A DNA stretch of 64,000 nucleotides from Burkholderiales bacterium (GTDB lineage Bacteria > Pseudomonadota > Gammaproteobacteria > Burkholderiales > JACQAP01): contig DASZQJ010000160.1 in assembly GCA_035549715.1 (NCBI GenBank), positions 22,688 through 86,687 of the forward strand, given 5' to 3'. A model generated the notes under the pieces. That model was not told where the DNA came from. It saw nothing but the letters and a program-made list of their open reading frames with translations, and did not search any database. This document shows positions 2,405 to 59,951 of this stretch, piece by piece. A program made the translations under genes and the position numbers. Numbering within the stretch: position 1 is the first letter of the stretch; each line of letters starts with the position of its first letter.

Positions 2405-2419
2405 GGCACGCCGGATGCG
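2404..2419 (+). promoter_or_regulatory. Candidate sigma-54 (-24/-12) promoter upstream of the response regulator gene
   Basis: GGGCACG-CCGG-ATGCG versus consensus TGGCACG-N4-TTGCW. GG and GC are correctly spaced, with two mismatches. It lies 70 nt upstream of ATG 2490. Confidence 0.3.
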
Positions 2420-2489
2420 CCACGGCACATGGGAGCCCCGCCCCCCCTCTGGCACAATGCGCCAACCCTCCGGAATCCCGAACCCAGGC

Positions 2490-3926
<1,437 letters not shown>

Positions 3927-5348: not shown

Positions 5349-5505
5349 AGAGCGCCCCGCCGGCCTTGCGTGCCGGCAGCGGCAGGCTGGCAGCAACGAA
5401 CGAACTTCAGGCAGAGTGAGCATGGAAATTCGGGGGGGACAGGGGTCCGGGGTCGGGCTTGCCTTGCGGTCGGCCGGTCGCGACATTGACGCGTGCCGTC
5501 ACTTG

Positions 5506-7275: not shown

Positions 7276-8672
7276 GCCTGCTGCTCCAGGCCCTGCAGAA
7301 GGCGTCCAAGAATCGCGAGGACGGCGCGGAGCCGGGCCCCGGCCCCGACCCGCTGGATTCCGAAGAGTTGTCGCTGGAGCCGCTCGGCGCCGCCGCGCAG
7401 GGCGAGGCGCCCCGGGAAGCTTCGGTGGCCGCCGCGCCTTCAGCCACACCGGCGCAGGCCGCCGCCATGATGCAGGTGAGCCGCGCTCCCGCCTTCGACC
7501 CGATCGAGTATGCGCGCGAGCATTACATGCTCATGTTCATCGCGATCGCGTTCCTGTTCGCCGCCGGCTACGGCGGCTACGTGTACGTCCAGGTCTCGAA
7601 TCCGTCCTGGCTGCGCAGGTCCGCGCCGCCGCCACCACCGCCGCTTGCGTCGGCGCCAGCGCCCGCGCCGGCAGCGAGCGAACCCGCAAGCGCCAAGATC
7701 AGCGGCATCCCCTCGAGCATGCAGACGCCGCCGGCCCAGGCAGCAGCCCCCGTACAAACGCCGCCGGCGGCCCAGGCCGTCGCGCAGGCGCAGCCCGCGG
7801 CGCCGGAGCAACACGCTTCGCCCGCCCAGCCTGCCCCGCAAGCCGCCGCGCCGGCCGAGGCGCCGAAGCCGGCACCCGCCGTTTCCGCGCCGGCCGAAGC
7901 GAGACCCCTGGTCAAGCAACCGGTGATCGCCGCCGTACCGTCGGCGGCGCCGCGCGCGGCTGCGTCGAAGCCTCGCCGCGCCGCGGAAGACACCGTCGTG
8001 CGCCAGGTGGACGAGGACGGCATCGAGACCGTCGTGCTGAAACCGGCCGCGCCCGCTCGCAACGCCTCCGCCGCGGAAAAGCCGGTGGTCGCCGAATCGC
8101 CCTCGGACCTCATGCGCGCCTACGAGGCGCTGCAGGCCGGCGACAGCGCGCAGGCGAGGACCCTTTACGAGCAGGTGCTCAAATCCGACCCGCGCAACAT
8201 CGACGCCCTGCTCGGCCTCGGCGCCATCGCCTGGAAGGACGGCCGCATCGACGAAGCCATGCAGCACTACCAGCGGGTGCTGGAGCTCGAGCCGCGCAAC
8301 ACCTACGCCCAGGCGGGGCTGATCGCCATGGTCGGCAGCGCCGACCCGGCCGCGAGCGAGACGCGGCTGCGCCAGCTGATCGCGCGCGATCCCTCCGGTT
8401 TCCTGTATTTCACGCTGGGCAACCTGTATGCGGACCAGGGCCTGTGGCCCGCCGCGCAGCAGGCATACTTCCAGGCCTACCAGTCGCAGCCGGAGAACCC
8501 GGATTACGCGTTCAACCTTGCGGTGGGCCTGGAGCACATCGGCCAGGCCAGGCCGGCGCTGGAGTACTACCGCAAGGCGCTCGACCTTTCGTTCCGCAAG
8601 GGACGCGCCAACTTCGACCAGAGCCTCGTCATCCAGCGCGTCGGCCAGCTATCATCCCGCGTCGAGCAATAG
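7272..8672 (+). CDS. GspB/ExeB/MshN-like protein: conserved N-terminal peptide, TM, long Ala/Pro-rich spacer, C-terminal TPR repeats
   Basis: N-terminus MSLLLQALQKASKNRE resembles the GspB/ExeB MSYILDALRK motif. TM segment MLMFIAIAFLFAAGYGGYVYV. TPR-like repeats ARTLYEQVLKSDPRNIDALLGLG, AMQHYQRVLELEPRN, ALEYYRKALDL. 4-nt overlap with the secretin gene. Confidence 0.7.
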   Translation: MSLLLQALQKASKNREDGAEPGPGPDPLDSEELSLEPLGAAAQGEAPREASVAAAPSATPAQAAAMMQVSRAPAFDPIEYAREHYMLMFIAIAFLFAAGYGGYVYVQVSNPSWLRRSAPPPPPPLASAPAPAPAASEPASAKISGIPSSMQTPPAQAAAPVQTPPAAQAVAQAQPAAPEQHASPAQPAPQAAAPAEAPKPAPAVSAPAEARPLVKQPVIAAVPSAAPRAAASKPRRAAEDTVVRQVDEDGIETVVLKPAAPARNASAAEKPVVAESPSDLMRAYEALQAGDSAQARTLYEQVLKSDPRNIDALLGLGAIAWKDGRIDEAMQHYQRVLELEPRNTYAQAGLIAMVGSADPAASETRLRQLIARDPSGFLYFTLGNLYADQGLWPAAQQAYFQAYQSQPENPDYAFNLAVGLEHIGQARPALEYYRKALDLSFRKGRANFDQSLVIQRVGQLSSRVEQ

Positions 8673-13772: not shown

Positions 13773-14266
13773 AGCACATCGCGCCGATGCTCGCGCTCGC
13801 CGCCCTCTGCGGCGCCGCCCACGCCGCCGAGCCCCTCGGCCGCCTGTTCTTCACCCCCGCGCAGCGCGCCACCCTCGACGCCGGCAAGCAGCTTGACCTG
13901 CCCAAAAAGGCCGGTCCCACCGTGCGTGGCCCCAGCGCCGTGACTCTCAACGGCATCGTCACCCGCAGCGACGGCGAATCCACCGTGTGGGTCAACGGCT
14001 CGCCCGCCAATGTGCCGCGCGGCGCAGGCAACGCGACGATCTACGCCAAGCCCTCCGGCGGCAGCAGCGCCCGCGTGACGGTCATGGAATCGGGAACCAA
14101 GCTGCGCGTGGGGCAGACGCTGGACCGGCGGACGGGGAAGGTGATGGAAACCTACGAGCACAAGCCGGCACCAATCCAATCAGACACAACCTCAAAAGAA
14201 GCGGGTACCACGCAAGGCGCTCCCAACCCCAGCAGGCCACCGCAGGAAGGCACGACGGAGAACTAA
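13769..14266 (+). CDS. Small secreted/periplasmic protein (MshK-like position)
   Basis: Internal ATG of ORF 13724..14266 gives MKHIAPMLALAALCGAAHA signal peptide. ATGA overlap with the upstream gene. No recognisable catalytic motif. Confidence 0.5.
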   Translation: MKHIAPMLALAALCGAAHAAEPLGRLFFTPAQRATLDAGKQLDLPKKAGPTVRGPSAVTLNGIVTRSDGESTVWVNGSPANVPRGAGNATIYAKPSGGSSARVTVMESGTKLRVGQTLDRRTGKVMETYEHKPAPIQSDTTSKEAGTTQGAPNPSRPPQEGTTEN

Positions 14267-14276
14267 TTCCGTCGGA

Positions 14277-15896
14277 TTGGTACAGGCCCGCATGAATTTC
14301 GTGCCTCACAAATGTGTTTGTCATGGCCGTAACCGGCAGCTCGGCGCAGCTCTGCTGCTTTCTTTGACCCTCATGGGCTTGCTGGTCGCCATTTTTGTCG
14401 TCATCCTGACCAATGATCTTGTTAGAGAGAACTACCGACGGCAGCTGACGACGATTGCATTAGCGAAGGCTAAAGAGGCTCTTATAGGTTTCGCCGCAAG
14501 TGTGAATCTTTCCGGAGCTTGCGGTAGTCCAACGAACAATTGCGTTCGTCCTGGGGATCTTCCCTGCCCGGATCTTAACGACAATGGCGAAGCTGATGAC
14601 GGGGCTTGCAGTGACGCTAGTAGTGGAAATCAGGAAAAGCGGATAGGCCGTCTACCGTGGAAGACACTAGGATTGCCGGATTTGCGCGACGGTAATGGTG
14701 AGCGTTTGTGGTATGCGGTGTCCAACAATTTCCAGAATAGCGTTCGCACTATCTGCTTGACCCCTGGTGACGCTGGATGTTTGAACAGCGAAACACCAGG
14801 AACCATTACGGTCTCCGACCGCAATGGCGTTGTAATACATGATGGACAGGACCCCAACCCGCCCTCCGGCTTGGTCGCGATCATCATTGCGCCCGGCCCT
14901 GCCTTGGTGCGCGATGACACAGGCTCCACGCAGGATCGCAGTTGCTCCGGCGGATCATGTGATGCACAGGGCGTATGCACAAGCAGCCCTGCATCGCTAA
15001 CGGCCAAGTGCAATCCAGTGAACTACCTCGACGTTGTGAGCGGCGGAGAAGACAACGCCAACTTTACCGATGGCAGTAGCTATGACGGTTTTATCAATGG
15101 ACCAATACTTGCCGCAGGAAACAATAGTGTGCTCGTTAACGATACTCTGCTACCCATAAAGTACGAAGATGTGATGCCTTTGCTCGAACGCCGCGTGGCA
15201 AAGGAAGCGTTGAATTGCATCTCTAACTACGGCGCTGTGAACAAGCGCTTCCCTTGGGCAGCCGGTATAACGGAATCGGCCAGTTCTTCGACATATCAAT
15301 CCAAAGCAGGCGAGCGATTCGGCAGAATTCCTGATTCATTTGGAATCACTCTTCTTGATACAGTTTCGCTGACAGATCCGTTTCTTGCCAGTCTATTGAG
15401 TCCGATTTGCAGTGCACCACTTACGGCGGGGTTATGCGCCACACCGACATGGGCTACGGTTCCGGCATGCAACATTCCGAATGGTGGCTGGTGGCGAAAC
15501 TGGAAGGATCAGGTCTTTTACGCCACGTCCGCAGCCAATAAACCGCTGGTTTCGGTAGATCTATTTCCGACGTTGCAAATTGGCTTTTCTATCGAAGCAA
15601 GTTGCGCCCCAACGGGGAACTGCATGACCGTGAACCCGACGGCCGGTGCGGACAAACGTGCGGTAGTGATCGTTGCCGGACGGCCGCTCGCAAGCACTAC
15701 ACCTCCGCAACCTCAAAAAACCTATGTTGATCCGCCAGCCCCACCGACCGCAAGCGTTCGGAATAGAGCCAATGCCCAGCACTATCTCGAAGGCATAAAC
15801 GCCGGTCCGGCATCGACGCCCGCTGCGCCCAGTAACTTCACATTTCAACAGTCTCCCTGGTCTACGACTTTCAACGATACAGTCTTGTACCAATGA
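14277..15896 (+). CDS. Large Cys-rich pilin-like protein with GspK/PilX/MshP-type hydrophobic N-terminus (candidate tip/adhesin minor pilin)
   Basis: 539 aa. N-terminus RQLGAALLLSLTLMGLLVAIFVVIL lacks a canonical G-FTLxE site. It shares KEALxGFA...LPCP...NG..D...C...KRxGxxPW..LGxPxL motifs with the next gene. Many Cys. Low GC. The start may be 14292. Confidence 0.6.
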   Translation: MVQARMNFVPHKCVCHGRNRQLGAALLLSLTLMGLLVAIFVVILTNDLVRENYRRQLTTIALAKAKEALIGFAASVNLSGACGSPTNNCVRPGDLPCPDLNDNGEADDGACSDASSGNQEKRIGRLPWKTLGLPDLRDGNGERLWYAVSNNFQNSVRTICLTPGDAGCLNSETPGTITVSDRNGVVIHDGQDPNPPSGLVAIIIAPGPALVRDDTGSTQDRSCSGGSCDAQGVCTSSPASLTAKCNPVNYLDVVSGGEDNANFTDGSSYDGFINGPILAAGNNSVLVNDTLLPIKYEDVMPLLERRVAKEALNCISNYGAVNKRFPWAAGITESASSSTYQSKAGERFGRIPDSFGITLLDTVSLTDPFLASLLSPICSAPLTAGLCATPTWATVPACNIPNGGWWRNWKDQVFYATSAANKPLVSVDLFPTLQIGFSIEASCAPTGNCMTVNPTAGADKRAVVIVAGRPLASTTPPQPQKTYVDPPAPPTASVRNRANAQHYLEGINAGPASTPAAPSNFTFQQSPWSTTFNDTVLYQ

Positions 15897-16633
15897 CTTC
15901 ACTGAACCGGAGCTTTGTTTCCGTAGCCAACTCGCCTAAAGGATTCACGCTAGTCGAGCTGGCAATTGGTATGCTCGTGATTGCGTTATTATTAGGAAGT
16001 ATCCTCGTTCCGCTGTCGGCACAGGTGGAACAACGCAAAGTCGCGGAAACCCAAAAAGTACTCGAGGAAACGAGAGAAGCACTGCTCGGGTTTGCAGTGA
16101 CTCAAGGCTATCTGCCTTGTCCAGCGGTATCAGCAGCAAATGGAGATGAAGACCGCTCCGCTGGGACTTGCACGGGGGGAAAGCGCCAAGGATTCGTGCC
16201 ATGGGCACTCCTCGGAACGCCCAAACTAGACGCTTGGGGACATATATTTCGATATAGCGTGTCCCCCACGTTTAGTACATCAGTAGCACCATTCAGCCTC
16301 GCATCCACGCGCGACATTACTATCCGAACCCGGGATAGCAGTGGCGCCCTTACGAACCTCTCGAATCTAAACGCGATCCCAGCGGTAGTTCTCTCCGTTG
16401 GAAAGAACGGCTATTGGGGAACAATTGACAACGGCACCAATGTCGGCGACAAGCTAGGCACTCCGGACAATGTGGACGAAGATACGAATGGCAATGGAAG
16501 CGGCCAGGTGTTCGTCTCCCGCACAATCACGGATAATGCAAATGCTACGGGAGGAGAGTGGGACGACATAGTGATTTGGCTGTCCCCCAACGTTCTTTTC
16601 AATCGAATGGTCGCTGCTGGCAAACTGCCTTGA
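15893..16633 (+). CDS. Prepilin-type N-terminal cleavage/methylation domain protein (minor pilin/pseudopilin)
   Basis: Class III signal: ...SPKG/FTLVELAIGMLVIALLLG with Glu5. 4-nt overlap with the upstream gene. Low GC. Confidence 0.8.
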   Translation: MTSLNRSFVSVANSPKGFTLVELAIGMLVIALLLGSILVPLSAQVEQRKVAETQKVLEETREALLGFAVTQGYLPCPAVSAANGDEDRSAGTCTGGKRQGFVPWALLGTPKLDAWGHIFRYSVSPTFSTSVAPFSLASTRDITIRTRDSSGALTNLSNLNAIPAVVLSVGKNGYWGTIDNGTNVGDKLGTPDNVDEDTNGNGSGQVFVSRTITDNANATGGEWDDIVIWLSPNVLFNRMVAAGKLP

Positions 16634-16655
16634 CCATTGCAGAGCAGCGCGGCAA

Positions 16656-18395
16656 TTAACGAGTAACTGAACGACTCTCCCCCGGCCTCAACGCAAAGCA
16701 AACATTCCCCGCCCGGTTGTCCTGCAGCTCCATCCGGTAGCCCTGCTCCTTCGCGAACTTCCCCGACTGGTACAGCCCCACGCCCAGGCCGCTGTTCGAC
16801 TGCACCGGTGAGCTGAAAAGCTGCGTCGCGAGCCCCTCGGGCACGGGCTGGCCGTCGTCGGTGACCTTGAGCGTGAAGCCGTTGCTCCACTGCAGGGCGG
16901 CGACGATGCGCAGCCTGCCCACCGCCTTGCGCTTGTCGAGCGCGTTCTGCAGGAGGTTCGTCAGCGCGCTCTCGAACACGTCCGCCGGCAGGGTCGCCCC
17001 CGCCGGGAAGTCCGCGCCCTCGAACTCCACGGCCTCGTGGGCGTAGCGCTGCTTCACCGCCGTCCACCATTGCAGGGCGGACGTGGCGTCGGTGCCCACG
17101 GGCGGCTTGGTGTTGAGCTTGTCCAGGGTGATCTGCAGGCGCTGGGTGATCTGCGGCAGCTGGCGCTGCATGAGCAGGCGCAGGGCGTCGGCATCGTCGG
17201 CGCCGCTGGTCTCGGCCGCGTTGCACAGCGAGCGCAGGGTCTGCAGCAGGTTCTTCACGTCGTGCGTCAGGCGCGAGCCGGTCTCGTAGATGGCCTGCAC
17301 GTAGGCGTTGCGGCGCTGCTCCTGCTCGCGCACCTTGGCGTCGTAGTAGTCGCCCAGCAGGCGCGCCAGCAGGCGGATGTGCAGCACCAGCGCCGGGCTC
17401 GGCGACCAGCGCGTGTACAGGGTCAGCGTCAGGCCGCCGAAGGTGAAGGCGGTGGCGTATTTGGTGGTGTCGCCGGCCACGCCGCTCGAGCCGCGGCCCT
17501 GCCACTGCACGCCGGAGAGCCAGGGCAGGCCCGACATCTCGTGCGCGGCGACGATGACGAACTTGTCCGGGTCGCGCTCGCGGTCGGCCAGGGCGGCCAG
17601 GCTGTGCATCCAGCGCTCGAAGGGCACGCCCATGCTCATGAAGTAGCGGGTCATGAGGTTGCCGATGCCGGCAAAGCCCGCGCGCGGGTCCCACAGCAGC
17701 GACAGGGCGACCAGCAGGCCCGCGATCACGATGAGCGTCTGCGCCAGCGAGACCACGTAGTTGCCGTGGCTCACCTCCTTGATCACGAAGGAGCCGAGCA
17801 CCAGCACCACGAGCATCAGGAACAGCAGCAGGCTGTAAAAGAGGTCCACCGAGTAGGCCGAGGCGCGCCTGGACTTCTCCGTCTTCACGAAAAAGATCGC
17901 GAGCACGGGCAGGACGAGGACGTAGCGGACCACCGTGGTCAGCAGGCCGGGGAAGGCCTGCTCGGGGAACAGGTGCGGCACCACCCAGGTGAGCAGCACC
18001 GAGAGCAGGTACACGGCGGCGAGCAGGGAGACGATGCGCTGGCCGAAGTTCTTGATGCCGGGGACGTTGCCGCCGATCAGCGAGAACAGCACCGAGATCC
18101 ACAGCGCCATCAGCCACCAGCTGCCGACGGCGATCAGCAGCACCGCCGCGCCGATGATCAGGACCGCCTGGCCGGGGATGACCTTCTGCCCGCCCTGCAT
18201 CAGCGGCTGCCACAGCAGGAAGAAGCCGAAGTGCGACAGCAGCAGCGCCTTGGCGAGCGGGTCGCCCAGCTCCAGCAGCAGGGCCCCGTGCAGCGCGAGC
18301 AGCATCAGCGAGAGCCAGTGCTCCTGGCGAATGCCGGCCACCAGGCGGCGGGCGAATCCGGATTCCGTTTTGATTTCCGCTTCCATCCTTGACAA
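16656..18395 (-). CDS. Polytopic membrane sensor histidine kinase, PrsK-like
   Basis: 579 aa. About 8 or more N-terminal TM helices. H-box SRLTHDVKNLLQTL. HATPase N/G boxes LLQNALDK, DDGQPVP, GLGVGLYQ. Confidence 0.75.
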   Translation of the reverse strand: MSRMEAEIKTESGFARRLVAGIRQEHWLSLMLLALHGALLLELGDPLAKALLLSHFGFFLLWQPLMQGGQKVIPGQAVLIIGAAVLLIAVGSWWLMALWISVLFSLIGGNVPGIKNFGQRIVSLLAAVYLLSVLLTWVVPHLFPEQAFPGLLTTVVRYVLVLPVLAIFFVKTEKSRRASAYSVDLFYSLLLFLMLVVLVLGSFVIKEVSHGNYVVSLAQTLIVIAGLLVALSLLWDPRAGFAGIGNLMTRYFMSMGVPFERWMHSLAALADRERDPDKFVIVAAHEMSGLPWLSGVQWQGRGSSGVAGDTTKYATAFTFGGLTLTLYTRWSPSPALVLHIRLLARLLGDYYDAKVREQEQRRNAYVQAIYETGSRLTHDVKNLLQTLRSLCNAAETSGADDADALRLLMQRQLPQITQRLQITLDKLNTKPPVGTDATSALQWWTAVKQRYAHEAVEFEGADFPAGATLPADVFESALTNLLQNALDKRKAVGRLRIVAALQWSNGFTLKVTDDGQPVPEGLATQLFSSPVQSNSGLGVGLYQSGKFAKEQGYRMELQDNRAGNVCFALRPGESRSVTR

Positions 18396-20094: not shown

Positions 20095-20098
20095 ATGA

Positions 20099-20111
20099 AA
20101 TCAACCCATTG
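20099..20111 (+). promoter_or_regulatory. IHF-binding site consensus match
   Basis: AATCAACCCATTG matches WATCAANNNNTTR at every defined position. It lies between the TGCGC repeats and the -24/-12 promoter, in an AT-rich patch. Confidence 0.5.
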
Positions 20112-20143
20112 ATTTAAAACGAATGTAGTTCGCCAGGTCACGA

Positions 20144-20159
20144 TGGCACGGAACTCGCA
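20144..20159 (+). promoter_or_regulatory. Sigma-54 (-24/-12) promoter of the major pilin genes
   Basis: TGGCACG-GAAC-TCGCA versus TGGCACG-N4-TTGCW (one mismatch). 40 nt upstream of ATG 20199, RBS GGAGGGAAG. Confidence 0.7.
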
Positions 20160-20198
20160 CGGGGAAACCGGACAGAACCGCTTCCAGGAGGGAAGATC

Positions 20199-20921
20199 AT
20201 GAAACGCCAACAACAGGGCTTTACCCTGATCGAAATCGCCATCGTGCTGGTCATCATCGGCCTGCTGCTCGGTGGCGTGCTCAAGGGCCAGGAGCTGATC
20301 ACCAGCGCCCGTGTCCGCAACCTGATCTCGCAGCAGGACGGCGTCAAGGCCGCCTTCTTCGGCTTCCAGGACCGCTTCCGCGCCCTGCCGGGCGACTACG
20401 CGACCGCCTCGACCAACCTCAAGTGCGGCTCCGGCAACTGCCTGAACGGCAACGGCAACGGCCAGATCCAGTCCAACGCGACGCCGGTGAGCGGCAGCGA
20501 AGTGCACGAGGAAATCCTGGCCTGGAGCCACCTGACCGCGGCCAATTTCCTCAACGGCAGCTACAACATGACGGCCGGCGACACCGCGCAGACGGACGCC
20601 AACAGCCCGAAGAACCCGTACAGCATCTACATGCAGCTCGTGTACGACTCGAACTACGCGGACAGCACGGCGGCCACCAACAAGCACAACCTCAAGACCG
20701 GCAGCCAGGTCCCGGTGGAAATCCTGGCCGAGGTGGACCGCAAGATCGACGACGGCAACCCGCTGCAGGGCGGCTTCCGGTTCTCGCCCTTCGTCCCCAA
20801 CGGCGGCACGGCCCTGCCGGCGCCGGCGGCGACCTACTCCGCGGGGGTCTGCGCCAGCACGGCCGGCACCTGGTTCTCCACCAACAGCGAGACCAACTGC
20901 GGCGGCGCGAGTCTGTTCTAA
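20199..20921 (+). CDS. Type IV major pilin-like protein, paralog 1
   Basis: MKRQQQG/FTLIEIAIVLVIIGLLLGG class III signal with Glu5. C-terminal Cys pair (C-x16-C) ending NCGGASLF. Confidence 0.85.
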   Translation: MKRQQQGFTLIEIAIVLVIIGLLLGGVLKGQELITSARVRNLISQQDGVKAAFFGFQDRFRALPGDYATASTNLKCGSGNCLNGNGNGQIQSNATPVSGSEVHEEILAWSHLTAANFLNGSYNMTAGDTAQTDANSPKNPYSIYMQLVYDSNYADSTAATNKHNLKTGSQVPVEILAEVDRKIDDGNPLQGGFRFSPFVPNGGTALPAPAATYSAGVCASTAGTWFSTNSETNCGGASLF

Positions 20922-27693: not shown

Positions 27694-29145
27694 ATGAAGC
27701 ATTCGCTGCAGCTCAAGCTTTCCCAGCACCTCACGCTGACGCCCCAGTTGCAGCAGTCCATCCGGCTGCTGCAGCTCTCGACGCTGGAGCTGAACCAGGA
27801 AATCGAGACCTTCCTGCAGGAAAACCCGCTGCTCGAGCGCGACGAGGAAGAGGAAGCGGCCTCGGCCCCCCCGCCCGACGTCATCCCCACGACGACGGTC
27901 ACGACCAGCACTTCGGCCGAAACCCCCGCCGCCGCCAACGAGACCGGCGACAGCGGCGACGAGCGCGGCCCGGCGGAAGCGGACTGGACGCTGGACGACG
28001 GCTACGGCTCCTACAGCGGGCAGGAGGGCGAGGACGATTCCGACGCGCCGCTGGCCGCCGAGCAGACCAAGCTGCGCGACCACCTGCTCGGGCAGATCAG
28101 CCTCATGCAGATGCCCGATCGCGACAAGGCGATCGTGGCCTTCCTGATCGACAACCTCGACGATGACGGCTTCATGACCCAGGACCTGGCCGAGCTCGCC
28201 GCACTGCTGCCCGCGGAGCTGGAAATCGAGCCCGACGAGCTGTCGATCGCCCTCAAGTACGTGCAAAGCCTCGACCCGCCCGGGGTGGGCGCGCGCAACC
28301 TGGGCGAATGCCTGGCGCTGCAGCTCGAGGTCCTGCCCGAGGACACGCCCTTTCGCAAGGAGGCGCTGCAGGTCGTCACCCAGCACCTGGACGCCTTCGC
28401 CTCGCGCGACTACTTCAAGCTCAAGAAGCTCCTGCGCTGCGACGACGACATGCTCAGGGGCCTGCAAAGCCTGATCACCCACCTGAACCCGCGCCCGGTG
28501 GCCAACTATTCCGGCGCGGAGACGCGCTACATCGTCCCGGACGTGGTGGTGCGCAAGGTCAAGGGCATGTGGGTGGCCTCGCTCAACCCGGAAGCGATGC
28601 CCAAGCTGCGCATCAACCGCCTGTACGCCGACATCCTGCACCGCAACCGCGACTCGAGCTTCCAGCAGCTCGCCGGGCAGCTGCAGGAGGCGAAGTGGCT
28701 GATCAAGAACGTGCAGCAGCGCTTCGACACCATCCTGCGCGTGTCGCAGGCGATCGTGGACCGCCAGCGCCACTTCTTCGAGCACGGCGAGGTGGCGATG
28801 CGCCCGCTGGTACTGCGCGAGATCGCGGACACGCTCGGGCTCCATGAGTCGACCGTCTCGCGGGTGACCACGCAGAAATTCATGCTTACCGCGCGCGGCA
28901 TTTTCGAGCTGAAGTACTTCTTCGGCAGCCACGTGACGACCGAAACCGGCGGCGCCTGCTCGGCCACCGCCATCCGCGCCCTGATCAAGCAGCTGGTGGG
29001 CGAGGAAGACCGCAAGAAACCCCTCTCCGACAGCCAGATCTCGGAAATTCTCGGCAGGCAGGGCATCATGGTGGCGCGCCGCACCATCGCGAAGTACCGG
29101 GAATCGCTGCAGATCCTGCCTGTCAATCTCCGCAAGTCGATTTGA
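27694..29145 (+). CDS. rpoN: RNA polymerase sigma-54 factor
   Basis: MKHSLQLKLSQHLTLTPQLQQSIRLLQLSTLEL region I, acidic region II, RpoN box ARRTIAKYRE near the C-terminus. Confidence 0.97.
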   Translation: MKHSLQLKLSQHLTLTPQLQQSIRLLQLSTLELNQEIETFLQENPLLERDEEEEAASAPPPDVIPTTTVTTSTSAETPAAANETGDSGDERGPAEADWTLDDGYGSYSGQEGEDDSDAPLAAEQTKLRDHLLGQISLMQMPDRDKAIVAFLIDNLDDDGFMTQDLAELAALLPAELEIEPDELSIALKYVQSLDPPGVGARNLGECLALQLEVLPEDTPFRKEALQVVTQHLDAFASRDYFKLKKLLRCDDDMLRGLQSLITHLNPRPVANYSGAETRYIVPDVVVRKVKGMWVASLNPEAMPKLRINRLYADILHRNRDSSFQQLAGQLQEAKWLIKNVQQRFDTILRVSQAIVDRQRHFFEHGEVAMRPLVLREIADTLGLHESTVSRVTTQKFMLTARGIFELKYFFGSHVTTETGGACSATAIRALIKQLVGEEDRKKPLSDSQISEILGRQGIMVARRTIAKYRESLQILPVNLRKSI

Positions 29146-54031: not shown

Positions 54032-56173
54032 ATGGATACCTCCCCGCCGACAATGTCCGAGGCCGAGCTTCTGTTCAAGGATGCAGCCGGCTACCTCAAG
54101 CCGGAGGACGTCGTACAGCTCCAGTCGGCCTACCAGTTCAGCGAGACCGCCCACCACGGGCAATTCCGCAAGTCCGGCGACCCGTACATCTCCCACCCGA
54201 TCGCGGTCGCCAAGATCCTCACCCAGTGGCACCTCGACAGCCAGGCGCTGACGGCGGCGCTGCTGCACGACGTGATGGAGGACACGGCGGTCACCAAGGC
54301 CGAGATCAGCGACCGGTTCGGCAAGCCCGTCGCCGACCTGGTCGACGGCCTGTCCAAGCTCGACCGCATCGAGTTCCAGACCCAGGAGCAGGCCCAGGCG
54401 GAGAACTTCCGCAAGATGCTGCTGGCGATGGCCCGCGACGTGCGCGTCATCCTGATCAAGCTCGCCGACCGCCTGCACAACATGCGCACCCTGCAGGTGA
54501 TGCACCCGAAGAAGCGCGCCCGCATCGCCCGCGAGACCCTGGAGATCTACGCGCCCATCGCGCACCGCCTGGGGCTCAACCAGCTCTACACCGAGCTGCA
54601 GGAGCTGTCGTTCCGGCACCTGTACCCGAACCGCTACCACGTGCTGTCCAAGGCGCTCATGCGCGCCCGCGGCAATCGGCGCGAGGTGGTGGACAAGATC
54701 CTGGAGTCGATCAAGGAGAAGCTCGCCGACAGCCACATCGAGGCGACGGTGCACGGGCGCGAGAAGAACCTCTACAGCATCTACAAGAAGATGCTGGAGA
54801 AGAACCTGTCGTTCGCCGAGGTGTTCGACATCTACGGCTTCCGGGTGGTGGTGCGCGACACGCCCGCCTGCTACCTCGCCCTGGGGGCGCTGCACCAGCT
54901 CTACAAGCCGATCCCGGGCAAGTTCAAGGACTACATCGCCATCCCCAAGGCCAACGGCTACCAGTCCCTGCACACCACGCTGTTCGGCCCCTTCGGCACC
55001 CCGATCGAGGTGCAGATCCGCACCATGGAAATGCACAAGATCGCGGAGGCCGGCGTGGCCTCGCACTGGCTGTACAAGGAGAACGACGCCCAGATCAACG
55101 ACCTGCACCGCAAGACCCACCAGTGGCTGCAGAGCCTGCTGGAGATGCAGTCGGAGTCGGGCGACTCGATCGAGTTCCTCGAGCACCTCAAGGTGGACCT
55201 GTTCCCCGACGAGGTCTACGTGTTCACGCCCAAGGGCAGGATCATGGCGCTGCCGCACGGGGCGACCTGCGTGGACTTCGCGTACGCGGTGCACACCGAC
55301 ATCGGCAACCGCTGCGTGGCGGCCAAGATCAACCACGAGCTCGTGCCCCTGCGCTCGGAGCTCAAGAACGGCGACCGGGTCGAGATCATCACCGCGGTGC
55401 ATGCCAAGCCCAACCCGGCCTGGCTCAACTACGTGACCACCGGCAAGGCCCGCTCGCACATCCGCCATTTCCTCAAGACCATGCAGTACGAGGAATCGGC
55501 GCAGCTGGGCAAGAACCTGCTCAACCAGGCGCTGGTGGCGCTCAAGTCCCCCGGCGCCGACAAGCTCACCGACGTGCAGTGGGAGCGCCTGCTCAAGGAA
55601 AACAGCGCCAAGTCGCGCCAGGAGGTGCTCGCCGACATCGGCCTGGGCAAGCAGCTCGCCATCGTCATCGCGCGCCAGCTGCTCTCCATCGCCGAGCCCA
55701 AGGGTGCGAGGCCGGAAAAGATTCCCGGCAGCCTCATCATCCGCGGCTCCGAAGGCATGGCGCTGCAGTTCGCCAAGTGCTGCCACCCGATCCCCGGCGA
55801 CCCCATCATCGGCTTCCTGAAGAAGGGGCACGGCCTGGTCATCCACACCCACGATTGCCCGGTCGCGCGCAAGACGCGCGGCGATCCCGAAAAGTGGCTC
55901 GACGTGGAATGGGCGCCGGACACCAAGAAGCTGTTCACGGTGAACATCAAGATCGTGGCTTCGAACCAGCGCGGCGTGCTGGCCAAGATCGCCGCGTCGA
56001 TCGCGGAGACCGACTCCAACATCGACAACGTGAGCCAGGAGCCCGGCGACTCCAGCGCCTACGTCGAGATCCACTTCACGCTGCAGGTCACCAACCGGCT
56101 GCACCTCGCGCAGATCATGCGCGGCCTGCGGCGCGTGCCCGAGGTGCTCCGGATCTGGCGCATGAAAGGTTGA
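54032..56173 (+). CDS. spoT: Bifunctional (p)ppGpp synthetase/hydrolase (SpoT/RelA homolog)
   Basis: HD domain HHGQFRKSGDPYISHP, synthetase YQSLHTTLFGPFGTPIEVQIRT, TGS and ACT regions. Position gmk-rpoZ-spoT. Confidence 0.95.
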   Translation: MDTSPPTMSEAELLFKDAAGYLKPEDVVQLQSAYQFSETAHHGQFRKSGDPYISHPIAVAKILTQWHLDSQALTAALLHDVMEDTAVTKAEISDRFGKPVADLVDGLSKLDRIEFQTQEQAQAENFRKMLLAMARDVRVILIKLADRLHNMRTLQVMHPKKRARIARETLEIYAPIAHRLGLNQLYTELQELSFRHLYPNRYHVLSKALMRARGNRREVVDKILESIKEKLADSHIEATVHGREKNLYSIYKKMLEKNLSFAEVFDIYGFRVVVRDTPACYLALGALHQLYKPIPGKFKDYIAIPKANGYQSLHTTLFGPFGTPIEVQIRTMEMHKIAEAGVASHWLYKENDAQINDLHRKTHQWLQSLLEMQSESGDSIEFLEHLKVDLFPDEVYVFTPKGRIMALPHGATCVDFAYAVHTDIGNRCVAAKINHELVPLRSELKNGDRVEIITAVHAKPNPAWLNYVTTGKARSHIRHFLKTMQYEESAQLGKNLLNQALVALKSPGADKLTDVQWERLLKENSAKSRQEVLADIGLGKQLAIVIARQLLSIAEPKGARPEKIPGSLIIRGSEGMALQFAKCCHPIPGDPIIGFLKKGHGLVIHTHDCPVARKTRGDPEKWLDVEWAPDTKKLFTVNIKIVASNQRGVLAKIAASIAETDSNIDNVSQEPGDSSAYVEIHFTLQVTNRLHLAQIMRGLRRVPEVLRIWRMKG

Positions 56174-56365: not shown

Positions 56366-57082
56366 ATGGAACTGTTTTCTCCGCAATTCTTCTCGTCGCT
56401 GCTCGCGATCGTCGTCATCGACCTCGTCCTCGCAGGCGACAACGCCATCGTGATCGCGCTCGCCGCGCGCAGCCTGCCGCCGGACCTGCGCAGGAAGGCC
56501 GTGCTGTGGGGCACGGTCGGCGCCCTCGCCGTGCGCTCGGCGATGACGCTCATCGTCGTCTGGCTGCTGATGATCCCGGGACTGCGCTTCCTGGGGGGCC
56601 TCGCGCTGGTGTGGATCGCGTGGAAGCTGCTCGCCCCGAAGGACGGGGACGACGGCGTGCACGCCAGGCCGGCGGACAACTTCTGGGCGGCCATGAAGAC
56701 CATCGTGATCGCCGATGCGCTCATGGGCCTGGACAACGTGCTCGCGGTCGCGGGCGCCGCGCAGGGCAGCTTCGTGCTGGTGGTGCTGGGCCTGCTCATC
56801 AGCGTGCCCATCGTGGTGTGGGGCAGCACGCTGATCCTCAAGTGGGTGGACCGCTTCCCGGCGATCGTCTACATCGGCGCCGGGGTGCTGGCGTGGACCG
56901 CCGCGCAGATGATGCTGCACGAGCCCCTGCTCGAGACCTGGGCGCCCTGGGCACTCACCCTCGAAGCGAAGGCGGCGGTGTACTTCGTCGTGATCGTCGG
57001 CGTGCTGGCGTCGGGCTACCTCGCGGAGCGGCGCCGCAAGTCCGCGGCCGTCGCGGGCGGGACGCGACCGGGCGGCCTATAA
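56366..57082 (+). CDS. TerC/YjbE family integral membrane protein (putative Mn/metal exporter)
   Basis: From ATG 56366 of ORF 56261..57082: MELFSPQFFSSLLAIVVIDLVLAGDNAIVIALAA...DALMGLDNVLAVAG (two DN motifs). Confidence 0.85.
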   Translation: MELFSPQFFSSLLAIVVIDLVLAGDNAIVIALAARSLPPDLRRKAVLWGTVGALAVRSAMTLIVVWLLMIPGLRFLGGLALVWIAWKLLAPKDGDDGVHARPADNFWAAMKTIVIADALMGLDNVLAVAGAAQGSFVLVVLGLLISVPIVVWGSTLILKWVDRFPAIVYIGAGVLAWTAAQMMLHEPLLETWAPWALTLEAKAAVYFVVIVGVLASGYLAERRRKSAAVAGGTRPGGL

Positions 57083-57107
57083 TCAACGCATGGTCTCCGC
57101 CTGCGCA

Positions 57108-57404
57108 ATGAAGCGCCTTGCCACCGCCAGCCTGCTCGCGCTGGCGGGCGCCCTGGGGGTGCCCGCCGCGACGGCGGCGGAGCAAAGCGAAGCGCCCCAG
57201 GTGTCGCGCACCGACTCCCTCGAACTGCCGGGACTCACCGCCGGCTGCCACGTCTGCGAATGGCGGCCCAAGCCCAACCGGATGCCCGCCGCCGAGCAAT
57301 GCGGCACCGACGCGGCCGGCGCGGCCCGGGTTGCCCTGTTCGAATGCGGCTTCTCCCAGGACTGCCAGCGGGAGTGCCACTTCGTGAGTTGCGAGCCGGA
57401 GTAA
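57108..57404 (+). CDS. Small secreted Cys-rich hypothetical protein
   Basis: ORF 57090..57404. MKRLATASLLALAGALGVPAATAAE signal peptide. Mature ~74 aa with 7 Cys (CHVC, QCG, ECG, DCQRECHFVSC). No family recognised. Confidence 0.5.
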   Translation: MKRLATASLLALAGALGVPAATAAEQSEAPQVSRTDSLELPGLTAGCHVCEWRPKPNRMPAAEQCGTDAAGAARVALFECGFSQDCQRECHFVSCEPE

Positions 57405-57443
57405 GGCCGCATTCCCGGGCCTTGCGGCCCTCTTCCCGCCCCG

Positions 57444-57459
57444 GTCGCCGGGCAGCGAC
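57444..57459. promoter_or_regulatory. GTCGC-N6-GCGAC dyad, candidate enhancer site (copy 1)
   Basis: GTCGCCGGGCAGCGAC, about 100 nt upstream of the sigma-54 promoter at 57545. Confidence 0.3.
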
Positions 57460-57470
57460 GTTTTCCCCCG

Positions 57471-57506
57471 CCAAACCGGGCCCTTTGCGGCCCGGTTTGG
57501 CTTTCC
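57471..57506 (+). terminator. Stem-loop terminator candidate after the Cys-rich gene
   Basis: ccaaaccgggc (57471-57481) pairs with gcccggtttgg (57490-57500), followed by cTTTcc. The U-tract is weak. Confidence 0.45.
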
Positions 57507-57544
57507 CGGCCCCAACTCCCTGATCGGCATCGCTTTTGAGCCCA

Positions 57545-57560
57545 TGGCACGGGGGTTGCC
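57545..57560 (+). promoter_or_regulatory. Sigma-54 (-24/-12) promoter
   Basis: TGGCACG-GGGG-TTGCC. All defined positions match except the final W. 68 nt upstream of ATG 57628 (RBS AAGGAGAG). Confidence 0.7.
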
Positions 57561-57627
57561 ATAGGGGTAGGTGCATGCCGCGCAGGCGCGCAAGCCGCGC
57601 CGGCGAAAATTCCAAGGAGAGTGACCG

Positions 57628-57996
57628 ATGCTGCTCGACCCGATGTCCGACCTGAGCGCCCGCCCGGGCCGTAACTTCCTGCAGTTGCTCCAGGAAGGCG
57701 TCCAGACCCTTTTCCACCTGCTGCTGTTCTCCCTGCTCGCGCTGGGCATCGGCGGGCTCATCTACAAGGCCGTGCGGCCCGAGGGCTGGATCGGCAGTAC
57801 GGTGGCCCAGCTCTGGTCCCAGCACCCCGTGGCGACCCTCGTGGCCTGCGCCGCGGCCCTGGGCGCCGGCGCCTTCGGCACCCGCCTGTTCGAGCGCCTG
57901 CCGCTGTTTGGCAAGCGCGGCGACATGCTGGTCTATTGCTGCCTCGCCCTGGGCCTGTTCTTCGCCTTCAAGCTGATCGTCACCGGCGGCCTGTAA
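57628..57996 (+). CDS. Small hypothetical membrane protein (3-4 predicted TM helices)
   Basis: 122 aa. Hydrophobic segments LFHLLLFSLLALGIGGLIY, VATLVACAAALGAGAFG, LVYCCLALGLFFAFKLIV. Good RBS. Sigma-54 promoter upstream. Confidence 0.6.
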   Translation: MLLDPMSDLSARPGRNFLQLLQEGVQTLFHLLLFSLLALGIGGLIYKAVRPEGWIGSTVAQLWSQHPVATLVACAAALGAGAFGTRLFERLPLFGKRGDMLVYCCLALGLFFAFKLIVTGGL

Positions 57997-58149
57997 GCCG
58001 GCCGGATTCCGGCAACGGGTTCCACCCTCATCGCCACCCGCCTGCGGACCCTCCCCCGCAGGCGGGACCGGCGGTGACCCTCCTGTCGTCCCCCGGCTAC
58101 ATCGATTCCTCCCGCGGATCATCGGGTTAGCCCCCGGCGCCCAGGCCGC

Positions 58150-58165
58150 GTCGCCGCACGGCGAC
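58150..58165. promoter_or_regulatory. GTCGC-N6-GCGAC dyad, candidate enhancer site (copy 2)
   Basis: GTCGCCGCACGGCGAC, about 65 nt upstream of the sigma-54 promoter at 58216. Confidence 0.3.
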
Positions 58166-58215
58166 TGGGACGGGTAAACATGCCGGCAAGCGGTTGTTCT
58201 GCCTCGCGCATCCGC

Positions 58216-58231
58216 CTGGCACGGGTGTTGC
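58216..58231 (+). promoter_or_regulatory. Sigma-54 (-24/-12) promoter
   Basis: TGGCACG-GGTG-TTGCC. 72 nt upstream of ATG 58303 (RBS AGGAGGA). Confidence 0.7.
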
Positions 58232-58302
58232 CCTACCGGGCGTGCAACGCGAGCCCGTCCCACGCGGGCACCTTCCACCGATCCACGAGAAGGAGGACTC
58301 GA

Positions 58303-58524
58303 ATGACCATGCGTTCGTTGCTGCTGCTCTGCGCCGCCGTCCTCGCCGCCTCACCCGCCATTGCCGCCGATGCCCCGAAGCGGATCGCGGAGCGCGTGCC
58401 CGCGGCCGATCCCGCCGCCGCGCCGATGCCCGCGGCGAGCCCCCGCGAAGCCCTCGCGGCGCCGCCTGCGCGCAAAGGCAAGCGGGTGCGCCATTCCTTC
58501 CCCGCCCCCAGGCGGGTGATGTAG
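58303..58524 (+). CDS. Small secreted Ala/Pro-rich hypothetical protein
   Basis: From ATG 58303 of ORF 58180..58524: MTMRSLLLLCAAVLAASPAIAADAPKR... 73 aa. Strong RBS. Followed by a terminator. Confidence 0.55.
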   Translation: MTMRSLLLLCAAVLAASPAIAADAPKRIAERVPAADPAAAPMPAASPREALAAPPARKGKRVRHSFPAPRRVM

Positions 58525-58528
58525 GCCG

Positions 58529-58558
58529 AAAAAAAAGCCGCGCAATGCGCGGCTTTTT
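58529..58558. terminator. Bidirectional rho-independent terminator between convergent genes
   Basis: A8-GCCGCGC-aat-GCGCGGC-T5. Confidence 0.85.
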
Positions 58559-58580
58559 CCAGGCGGCCCGGTGCGGGCCG

Positions 58581-59825
58581 TCAGGGCCGTTCCATCTTGC
58601 AGGTGGTGGGCGTGACCGTGTCCTTGGCCTCGATGCGGCCCTCGGTCTTGAAGCCCATGCCGGTGCGCTCCACGTCGTACTTCACGCCCTTGCCGCCGGC
58701 CTTGACAAAGCTGGAGATGAACAGCGGCTGCACCAGCTGGTGGTTGTCGGCGCGCATCTCCATCTCGCCGGTGACGCCGGTGTACTTCATGCCTTCCAGC
58801 GCCCTGGCGACCTTGGCGGGGTCGGTGGACTTGGCCTGGTTCATCGCCCTGGCCAGCATTTCCATGCCGCTCTTGAGCGAAAGGAAGAAGAAGTCGTCCT
58901 TCGCGTCCGGGAAGCGCTTGCGATAGGCCTCGGTGAGCGCGTTGGAAGCGGCGTCGCCCACGTTGGTGTGCCACATGCTGACCTGGCGCACGTCCTCGCC
59001 GGCCTGGCCGATGGCGGTGGGCCCGCCGACGATGCCCGAATAGTAGGTGAAGAAATCGGCCTTCAGGCCCGATTCCTTGGCCGCCTTCACGAGCAGCGAC
59101 AGGTCGTTGCCCCAGTTGCCGGTGATCACGCTGTCCGCGCCGGAGGCCTTGATCTTCGAGATGTAGGGCGCGAAGTCCTTGATCTTGCCCAGCGGGTGCA
59201 GGTCGTCACCGACGATCTCGACGTCGGGGCGCTTTTCCTTGAGCATCGCGCGGGCGGCCCTGGAAACGCCCTGTCCGAACGCATAGTCCTGGTTGATCAG
59301 GTAGACCTTCTTGATGCCCTTTTCCCTGACCATGTAGCTGGTCAGGGCCTGCATCTTCATGTCGGTGTCCGCGTCGAAGCGGAAGTGCCAGAAGCTGCAG
59401 CGGTCGTTGGTCAGGCTCGGATCCACCGCGCCGTAGTTCAGGAACAGGATGCTCTGCTCGGGATTGCGCGCGTTGTGCTTGGTCACGGCCTCGGACAGCG
59501 CGATGGCGACGTTCGAGCCGTTGCCCTGGAAGAAGATGCGGATGCCCTGGTCGGTCATCTGCTTGAGTGCGATCAGCGCCTCCTGCGGGCTGCTCTTGGA
59601 GTCGAAGGTGACGAGCTCCAGCTTCCTGCCCATCACGCCGCCCGCGGCGTTGACGCCCTCGATGACCAGCAGGGCTTCGCGCGCGCCGTGCTCGCCGACG
59701 TTCGCGAACGGGCCCGACAGCGGGTCCATGTAGCCGATCTTGATGTTCTCCGCCAGCGCGGGGGCGCAGGCCGCTGCCGCCAGCAGCAGGGCCGCGAGGC
59801 CACGTGCGATGAAATTCGAATGCAT
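58581..59825 (-). CDS. Branched-chain amino acid-type ABC transporter substrate-binding protein (LivK/Peripla_BP_6-like)
   Basis: From ATG 59825 of ORF 58581..59894(-). Signal peptide MHSNFIARGLAALLLAAAACAPALA, then ENIKIGYMDPLSGPFANVGEH. Confidence 0.85.
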   Translation of the reverse strand: MHSNFIARGLAALLLAAAACAPALAENIKIGYMDPLSGPFANVGEHGAREALLVIEGVNAAGGVMGRKLELVTFDSKSSPQEALIALKQMTDQGIRIFFQGNGSNVAIALSEAVTKHNARNPEQSILFLNYGAVDPSLTNDRCSFWHFRFDADTDMKMQALTSYMVREKGIKKVYLINQDYAFGQGVSRAARAMLKEKRPDVEIVGDDLHPLGKIKDFAPYISKIKASGADSVITGNWGNDLSLLVKAAKESGLKADFFTYYSGIVGGPTAIGQAGEDVRQVSMWHTNVGDAASNALTEAYRKRFPDAKDDFFFLSLKSGMEMLARAMNQAKSTDPAKVARALEGMKYTGVTGEMEMRADNHQLVQPLFISSFVKAGGKGVKYDVERTGMGFKTEGRIEAKDTVTPTTCKMERP

Positions 59826-59951
59826 GGGAAGCGCTCCTCCAGTCATGTTGGGATGCGCCGGTTCGAGTGTGCTGCCCGCCGGCGTGCGGACCATTCTAAC
59901 CCAGCCCGACAGGGCCTTAACGCCCCGCCGCGCCGTGGGTTTACGACGGAT

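Follow-up and report, generated by a model that had tools for sequence, protein, structure and literature searches.

Candidate GlrR/QseF-type control of two tandem sigma-54 promoters that precede orphan small-protein genes in an uncultured Burkholderiales bacterium

Which activator would switch on two adjacent small genes that each carry a sigma-54 promoter and a common inverted repeat, when no activator gene stands beside them? The question is raised by a 64-kb stretch of high-G+C, beta-proteobacterial DNA from an uncultured soil Burkholderiales bacterium (the window, meaning the whole stretch analysed). In it, a gene for an inner-membrane protein of 122 residues (57628–57996, plus strand) is followed by a gene for a secreted Ala/Pro-rich protein of 73 residues (58303–58524, plus strand). 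We propose that their promoters, P1 and P2, are sigma-54 units whose activator is a response regulator of the GlrR/QseF type, with its gene at another place in the genome, a reading to which we give a probability of about 0.78. The proposal is made in silico, from motifs, conservation, fixed geometry, the identity of the inverted repeat to GlrR sites of Escherichia coli, and the physical linkage of such repeats to glrR genes. The kind of element is known; the instance is new.

P1 is the sequence TGGCACGGGGGTTGCC at 57545–57560 on the plus strand (GG at 57546–57547, GC at 57558–57559); the ATG of the 122-residue open reading frame (ORF) follows after 67 nt. P2, TGGCACGGGTGTTGCC, occupies 58217–58232 on the plus strand, and 70 nt separate it from the ATG at 58303. 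Both match TGGCAC-N5-TTGC exactly, with the canonical −24 GG and −12 GC. The longer form TGGCACG-N4-TTGC occurs twice when both strands of the 64 kb are searched, at P1 and P2 only, against an expectation of 0.06, and none of 100 shuffled sequences reached two. Because the two promoters are also conserved across orthologous loci, as described below, they stand far above chance, and by their sequence they are very probably real sigma-54 promoters. Transcription would start near 57571 from P1 and near 58243 from P2. No sigma-70-like promoter was found in the interval 56900–58700. Both ORFs have a strong Shine–Dalgarno sequence, AAGGAGA for the 122-residue protein and GAAGGAGGA for the 73-residue protein.

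Upstream of each promoter lies a 16-bp dyad that we regard as an activator box. P1 has a single one, GTCGCCGGGCAGCGAC at 57444–57459, which begins 101 nt before the T of TGGCAC. P2 has a pair, 65 bp apart: a proximal box, GTCGCCGCACGGCGAC at 58150–58165, which begins 67 nt upstream of the corresponding T, and a distal, imperfect box, GTCGTCCCCCGGCTAC at 58085–58100, with one mismatch in its right half. The pattern GTCGC-N6-GCGAC is found in the window at 57444–57459 and 58150–58165 only (0.57 expected; seven of 100 shuffles reached two). Between box and promoter are sites resembling the consensus for integration host factor (IHF), both on the minus strand. The P1 site, CAACTCCCTGATC at 57513–57525, is the reverse complement of WATCAANNNNTTR at seven of nine specified letters; the P2 site, CAAGCGGTTGTTC at 58187–58199, is a weaker match and stands 2 nt off the position usual for the wider regulon described below. 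Both are matches at the level of the consensus only, and we treat them as putative. An earlier note made from the letters of this DNA had placed P1 and the two dyads correctly and had the right site for P2, the unique exact match with P1, but numbered it one base too low; the distal P2 box and the IHF-like sites at both promoters had escaped it. The interval from the P1 box to the IHF-like site further contains a perfect hairpin with a 12-bp stem, CCAAACCGGGCC-CTTTGC-GGCCCGGTTTGG (57471–57500), which is not conserved in related loci.

The conservation of this arrangement was followed in 26 related loci from species-representative genomes, all of them metagenome-assembled genomes (MAGs). These loci share the order spoT, (TerC), a gene for a small Cys-rich protein, the 122-residue gene, and then convergent genes. 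The region upstream of the 122-residue gene is included in 24 of them, which with the window gives 25 sequences. A match to TGGCA[CT]-N5-TTGC is present 50–86 nt upstream of the 122-residue gene in all 25 (P1) and about 200 nt downstream of that gene in 15 (P2); elsewhere in the related loci, some 410 kb, there is a single further match. When the sequences are right-aligned on P1, the start of the dyad falls between −100 and −102 in all 25, counted from the T of TGGCA, and the spacer between box and promoter has diverged beyond recognition between sub-clades. The pattern GTCGYY-N4-RRCGAC occurs 48 times in the 474 kb of window and related loci, and 47 of these are at P1 or P2 box positions. 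At P2 the proximal box begins at −67 to −71, and the distal box is conserved as TGTCGT-N6-GACAACA about 65 bp further upstream. No conserved second box was found at P1 within 260 nt in any orthologue, with up to three mismatches allowed. The arrangement reaches orthologues at 42–44% protein identity (L029 and L032), in which a −24 element of sigma-54 type is kept and the box stands at −102 or −103. Their −12 elements differ: that of L032, which has spoT and not the Cys-rich gene upstream, is canonical, and that of L029 reads TTGA instead of TTGC.

P2 is the more variable of the two. The proximal P2 box is retained even in loci that have no P2 promoter motif. The −12 element of P2 is mutated in L006 and L008, and in L019 and L029 the downstream boxes persist and the promoter is gone. 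In five further relatives (L012, L014, L025, L007 and L002) the 73-residue gene is largely deleted. Its C-terminal codons and the terminator remain, and the P2 promoter with both boxes is retained about 560–700 nt after the start of the 122-residue gene. Judged from these sequences, P2 would there give a short RNA of about 70–130 nt without an ORF. A decayed P2 gene with its promoter and terminator kept is one possible route to GlrR-dependent small RNAs (sRNAs) such as GlmY.

The identity of the box is suggested by E. coli. GlrR recognises the consensus TGTCN10GACA, and three such sites, with IHF sites, are found upstream of the sigma-54 promoters of glmY and glmZ (Göpel et al., PMC3045617). 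Reading the genome sequence of E. coli K-12 upstream of glmY, we find TGTCGCTTTCTGGCGACA and TGTCTCTTTTTAGCGACA, 63 bp apart. The first contains GTCGCT-TTCT-GGCGAC, a perfect instance of GTCGYY-N4-RRCGAC. That is, the GTC-N10-GAC core is invariant, and the extended form of the box equals glmY site 1, GTCGCTTTCTGGCGAC.

The box is also found together with sigma-54 promoters far beyond the related loci. Metagenome contigs were scanned for GTCGYY-N4-RRCGAC followed, after a gap of 58–88 nt, by TGGCAYR-N4-TTGC, a range that leaves out the P2-type spacing (51–55), and at least 120 stretches were recovered. These loci are selected by pattern and their number is a lower bound, so it gives no regulon size per genome; orthologues of the 122-residue protein account for about five of the 120 matches listed. 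Among 118 distinct matches listed, the gap is 63–68 in 88, 75–78 in 16 and 84–88 in 11. The classes are about one helical turn apart, and the P1 gap of 85 belongs to the third. In 72 of 109 among the listed matches the box is preceded, 65–68 bp upstream, by a second one with two mismatches or fewer. Positions −32 to −20 of the 111 loci listed are enriched, over a G+C-rich background, in YAA-N4-TTGAT, a motif that reads as the IHF consensus WATCAANNNNTTR on the opposite strand, and the IHF-like site of P1 is exactly at this offset from the T of TGGCA. Since the gap classes, the second box and the IHF-like motif all lay outside the search pattern, the matches are not the product of chance. Downstream ORFs among the matches listed have Shine–Dalgarno sequences, and their products recur.

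The metagenome loci also connect the box with a regulator. Of the 110 matches listed with at least 150 nt of upstream sequence, 28 have an enhancer-binding protein (EBP) gene in the same orientation upstream of the box, its stop codon 5–200 nt away. These EBPs have a receiver–AAA+–helix-turn-helix (HTH) architecture and 446–467 residues. In NCBIfam, GlrR is their best and full-length model, at 607–613 bits versus about 420 for NtrC, a margin of some 190 bits. Compared with E. coli GlrR, one of them has 58% identity across 439 residues (E 7e-178) and the same recognition helix, RNRTEFYKLL. The histidine kinase encoded upstream is 32% identical to GlrK over 455 residues, and a lipoprotein gene (158–229 residues) lies between kinase and regulator, the same order as in glrK-qseG-glrR of E. 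coli. Public sources name homologues 'response regulator GlrR' in Betaproteobacteria and in Burkholderiales MAGs, and operons of the glrK–lipoprotein–glrR type are common in Burkholderiales metagenome contigs and MAGs.

One such contig, L158, has glrR followed by two boxes 65 bp apart, a 54-nt gap and a sigma-54 promoter, which is the layout of P2. In several contigs the glrR operon and its first targets are convergent to spoT-rpoZ-gmk, in the same chromosomal neighbourhood as P1 and P2. The gene order in L154–L158 (for example L158 2342–8548) is mlaC with its own sigma-54 promoter, (BON), a glrK-like kinase, the lipoprotein and glrR, then boxes and a sigma-54 promoter, a glycine-zipper/CxxCG protein and a 94-residue lipoprotein, the block being convergent to spoT-rpoZ-gmk. 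Because P1 and P2 occupy an equivalent place downstream of spoT, this arrangement hints that the spoT neighbourhood is an old home of the regulon. A further linkage concerns PII: in L130 a box and sigma-54 promoter precede a PII (glnB-type) gene, and in E. coli glnB is immediately downstream of glrR (L153, 2687070–2688803), so the PII/glnB–glrR linkage may be old.

Since the glmY sites share the core of the dyad and the metagenome boxes are linked to glrR orthologues, we identify the dyad with good confidence, at the level of sequence, as a GlrR/QseF box, and we infer that the source genome encodes a GlrR-type regulator. Several points weigh against this identification. The 64-kb window and the 26 related genome loci contain neither glrR nor glrK nor qseG. 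The box-linked EBPs fall under the equivalog cut-off of the NCBIfam GlrR model NF011695, which is 763 bits; we treat them as GlrR orthologues outside the enterobacterial training range of that model. The lipoprotein gives a BLASTP E value of 0.3 with QseG, over a C-terminal coiled segment only, which is not significant, and NCBIfam has no match for it. The outer letters of the P1 box are GGTC/GACG, not TGTC/GACA (6 of 8 agree); those of P2 are CGTC/GACT in the window and TGTC/GACT in most orthologues (7 of 8). P1 has a single box versus two or three at characterised GlrR promoters, and the gap of the proximal P2 box, 51–53, is outside the main 64–67 class. Finally, several loci hold downstream boxes with no recognisable P2, so a box alone is no proof of an active promoter.

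A rival view is that the sigma-54 promoters are real and the dyad is bound by another activator of the NtrC family, either a GlrR paralogue with a similar HTH or some other EBP of the lineage. The unlinked regulator, the outer letters of the P1 box and the sub-threshold scores of the linked EBPs all suit it, as does the report of a second 'GlrR_2/QseE' orthologue group in Acidithiobacillia (PMC12194929). It has to reckon with a box core identical to that of the E. coli GlrR sites, and with box-linked EBPs that share both the E. coli GlrR recognition helix and 58% of their residues overall. Nor does the window offer another candidate: its sole EBP (2415–3926, 54 kb away) was considered as the activator and rejected, since it has a different recognition helix and scores 228 bits with GlrR versus 366 with NtrC. 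We regard control by another activator as unlikely.

A quite different idea is that the dyads act as RNA hairpins, terminating or stabilising the upstream transcripts, that of the Cys-rich gene before P1 and read-through from the 122-residue gene before P2. The stop codon of the upstream gene precedes the P1 dyad by 40 nt, and many loci have TTTT behind the dyad; pairing is kept through G-U pairs or compensatory changes in L002, L012, L016, L017 and L021, and positions 6 and 11 are to some extent associated in the metagenome set (p = 0.009). Against this, C-A mismatches at positions 5 and 12 are as frequent as independence predicts (8/48 and 15/120; Fisher p 0.67 and 1.0), and the pair statistics led us to reject the hairpin reading of the dyad. 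Several clades lack the T-run, as does P2, a strict terminator scan finds nothing, and it is the offset to the promoter that is fixed, the offset to the upstream stop being variable. The same box moreover stands in the same geometry before about a hundred unrelated genes among the matches listed. We therefore consider RNA hairpins very improbable. Least credible of all is a Psp-like (phage-shock-protein-like) membrane-stress module, with a PspG- or PspB-like effector under a PspF-type activator, which the earlier note had offered as a guess. A small membrane protein, a sigma-54 promoter and an IHF-like site do recall pspG, in resemblance only. Yet the 122-residue protein and 49 relatives give no Pfam match (E <0.01) to any Psp family, NCBIfam gives none for the 122-residue protein, and there is no similarity to PspB, PspC, PspD or PspG. 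No pspA or pspF gene is nearby, no neighbour of the pair is PspA-like, and the nearest EBP is 54 kb away. It is GlrR sites that the box matches, and the activators linked to it carry a receiver domain, which PspF does not.

Thus the Psp guess falls. Envelope stress as a theme does fit, by way of a QseE/QseG/QseF (GlrK/GlrR)-type system. The other claims of the earlier note fared better: there is indeed no EBP gene adjacent to the pair, neither product belongs to a family of Pfam or NCBIfam, and a sigma-54 regulon module is borne out by the conservation of promoters and dyad (25 of 25 for P1, 15 of 25 for P2). That module is not self-contained, for it appears as a small part of a large regulon with a nameable activator.

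We propose that GlrR/QseF-type control at this locus would proceed as follows. A GlrK-type kinase and its lipoprotein partner would bring about phosphorylation of GlrR, and the phosphorylated regulator would bind the 16-bp box (Y)GTCGYY-N4-RRCGAC(R), thereby switching on two tandem transcription units, each from its own sigma-54 promoter. At P1 it would bind one box, its centre about 120 nt upstream of the presumed start; at P2 it would bind two, 65 bp from each other, with centres about 86 and 151 nt upstream. IHF, if it binds at P1 and P2 as their sequences suggest, would do so just upstream of the −24 element and bend the DNA so that the activator oligomer touches the closed complex, which would be remodelled by ATP hydrolysis to open the promoter. 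P1 would then give a monocistronic mRNA for the 122-residue, three-helix inner-membrane protein, ending probably at a conserved hairpin, and P2 an mRNA for the 73-residue secreted Pro/Ala-rich peptide, ending probably at a bidirectional terminator. The 122-residue gene may in addition receive basal read-through from the Cys-rich gene, as in a clade that lacks P1. Both genes would be members of a large, envelope-oriented GlrK/QseG/GlrR (QseE/G/F) regulon.

Parts of this scheme are familiar from other sigma-54 systems. At the pspA and pspG promoters, sigma-54 with the assistance of IHF drives a small inner-membrane protein. The promoter, the IHF-like site and a small inner-membrane product are thus shared, whereas PspF has no receiver domain and is under PspA control, the upstream sites are others, and the Psp proteins have no sequence similarity to those described here. 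NtrC at glnAp2 likewise is a dimeric HTH regulator that reaches sigma-54 polymerase by looping from 16–17-bp dyads bound some 100 nt upstream; it recognises sites of the GCAC-N5-GTGC type, and so differs in box sequence as well as in regulon content.

The closest likeness is to glmY and glmZ of Enterobacteriaceae. These have a −24/−12 promoter with an IHF-type site between box and promoter, and an activator from a kinase–lipoprotein–regulator operon. At glmY the likeness extends to the box core, common to TGTCGCTTTCTGGCGACA and TGTCTCTTTTTAGCGACA of E. coli and to GTCGCCGGGCAGCGAC and GTCGCCGCACGGCGAC here, and to two boxes 63–66 bp apart, as at P2. The differences are that the products here are small envelope proteins and there decoy or base-pairing sRNAs; that P1 has one box, at a strictly fixed distance; that the box gaps here are 51–85 nt versus 90 and 153 nt at E. 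coli glmY; that the outer letters here are often C/G rather than T/A; and that the regulator gene is unlinked here and no overlapping sigma-70 promoter was found here. One study (PMC6075780) describes a QseF-dependent sigma-54 promoter of rpoE in E. coli with cell-envelope homeostasis as its output. The activator family, the sigma factor and the envelope output are the same, and the target there is a sigma-factor gene.

In the literature examined, QseE/QseF is described as enterobacterial, with the targets glmY and rpoE in E. coli and glmZ in other enterobacteria. One comparative study lists QseF-like EBPs more widely and names no targets outside enterobacteria. The genes found behind box and promoter in the metagenomes suggest a wider role. 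The most frequent product among the matches listed is an apparently cytoplasmic protein of 68–71 residues that starts MDRRLTAEDIDWLRKL (MDRRLTAEDIDWLRKLRNARAANQPSPDIPTSVVRKL...), has no Pfam match and always has a gap of 65–67 (L034, L037, L041, L046, L051, L068, L080, L083, L089, L093, L100, L114, L117, L136, L141, L149 and others). By Pfam, other listed products are bactofilin-domain, secreted EF-hand plus BON, BON, MlaC, MdoG/OpgG and PRC-barrel proteins, and the listed matches further include glycine-zipper lipoproteins and membrane-anchored CxxCG-VESIR proteins. Those of L069 and L124 are full-length, distant members of the 122-residue family (E 4e-18 and 3e-13 in a million-sequence space), the one in L124 encoded directly after glrR, behind box and promoter. 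In L105 a relative of the 73-residue protein is found behind box and promoter.

This regulon content points to envelope or osmotic homeostasis. It is tempting to propose that the QseE/QseG/QseF (GlrK/GlrR) system of uncultured soil Burkholderiales is the master activator of a large sigma-54 regulon. Its targets would be dozens of promoters built to one plan (box pair, IHF site, −24/−12), which serve small envelope or periplasmic proteins. The products taken into account are BON/OsmY-like, EF-hand, glycine-zipper, MlaC, OpgG and bactofilin proteins, the 68-residue cytoplasmic protein and the 122-residue family. Such a role would be unlike the two- or three-target sRNA control of enterobacteria, and if the proposal is true, envelope or osmotic homeostasis may be the ancestral role of GlrK/GlrR. 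We advance it tentatively, as a proposition with somewhat less than an even chance. The signal and the breadth of output of GlrK/GlrR are still debated in E. coli itself. The comparison suggests that the box and promoter geometry of enterobacterial glmY and glmZ apply almost unchanged in Betaproteobacteria, before many protein-coding genes. It leads to a prediction for members of the regulon, namely (Y)GTCGYY-N4-RRCGAC(R) at 64–67, 75–78 or 84–88 nt from TGGCA, with YAA-N4-TTGAT at −32 to −20. Such a prediction lends itself to a test in E. coli, where GlrR has the very same recognition helix, and the source organism need not be cultured for it. Two orphan small-protein families thereby gain a type of regulator and a likely setting in cell-envelope homeostasis.

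The 122-residue protein has 252 homologues, almost all of exactly 122 residues; their sources are metagenomes of soil and sediment and MAGs that carry the label Burkholderiales or Betaproteobacteria. The family alignment has a mean column identity of 83%, and a profile search of 1.84 billion cluster representatives found 71 clusters only, all of about 100–122 residues. Its AlphaFold2 model is of low confidence (pLDDT 63.7, pTM 0.33) and has three long helices and a short one; we predict from it three transmembrane helices and one short amphipathic helix. Pfam and NCBIfam gave no match for this protein, the 73-residue protein or the Cys-rich protein, and Pfam gave only scattered weak matches for 50 diverse relatives of the 122-residue protein. 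The 73-residue protein has a signal peptide and a basic C-terminal motif, RVRHSFPAPRRVM; its gene evolves fast and is decayed in some relatives. On this evidence the 122- and 73-residue products are orphan families, seen in metagenomes only.

The gene for the small, secreted Cys-rich protein, 98 residues from the ATG at 57108, is at 57108–57404 on the plus strand, the longest ORF beginning at 57090. It has 258 homologues, all unnamed, the closest being of 98 residues and 100% identical. Conserved motifs are CxxCEWRP, FECG and C-x3-C-x-F-x2-C. The gene has no sigma-54 promoter upstream of itself. It is directly 5′ of the 122-residue gene in nearly all related loci, as it is in the distant orthologues L029 and L031, and the pair is kept even in clades at 34–42% identity. 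In L031 a promoterless interval of 52 nt separates the Cys-rich gene from the 122-residue-family gene, and a Sulfuricella-type homologue lies 29 nt after an ABC-F gene, again without a sigma-54 promoter, so sigma-54 control is not universal in the family. Because the pair is kept in distant clades and is found 52 nt apart without a promoter in L031, the gene arrangement suggests that a functional partnership of the Cys-rich and 122-residue proteins predates sigma-54 control.

Just 3′ of the 122-residue gene, at 58028–58077 on the plus strand, is a two-tier RNA hairpin with a C-rich loop, ACCCUCCC, a fold z-score of −5.2 and no U-tract. Seven of the 11 pairs of its inner stem have compensatory changes; the outer stem differs in sequence by clade with its pairing maintained, and the loop ACCCNCCC is conserved. 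Such covariation marks it as a genuine RNA structure, which probably forms the 3′ end of the P1 transcript or stabilises it. A hairpin is found at the same position in L001–L023, with energies of −30 to −42 kcal/mol and the loop ACCCUCCC or ACCCACCC; the loop is complementary to Shine–Dalgarno sequences of the GGAGG type. After the 73-residue gene, direct reading of the sequence reveals a hairpin, GCCGCGC-AAT-GCGCGGC (58537–58553), between an A-run and a T-run (58529–58558 in all). Nothing was reported by the strict terminator scan in the region, this hairpin included, and by its sequence it looks like a bidirectional terminator shared by the 73-residue gene and a convergent gene for a periplasmic binding protein (58581–59894, minus strand).

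The local gene order is gmk, rpoZ, spoT (54032–56173), a TerC-family gene (to 57082), and then the Cys-rich, 122-residue and 73-residue genes. The gene for sigma-54 itself, rpoN, is inside the window at 27694–29145, followed by hpf and ptsN. At the gathering threshold, Rfam matched two tRNAs and nothing else in the whole window. A stretch of about 2.4 kb (14266–16656) has no ORF that passes the third-position G+C filter, which every neighbouring gene passes, and may be foreign or non-coding DNA. The window's own EBP (2415–3926) is a receiver–AAA–HTH protein resembling NtrC or the PEP-CTERM regulator, encoded in a pilus/secretin cluster, next to genes for a secretin, a TPR protein and an AAA_22 ATPase (2415–8672). 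A third sigma-54-like promoter, TGGCACGGAACTCGC at 20144–20158, stands 41 nt upstream of a gene for a type IV pilin-like protein of 240 residues with an N_methyl motif (region 20098–20921). The GlrR box is absent there, and about 35 nt before the promoter stands AATCAACCCATTG, which agrees perfectly with the IHF consensus; this pilin-like gene may be the one that the window's own EBP activates.

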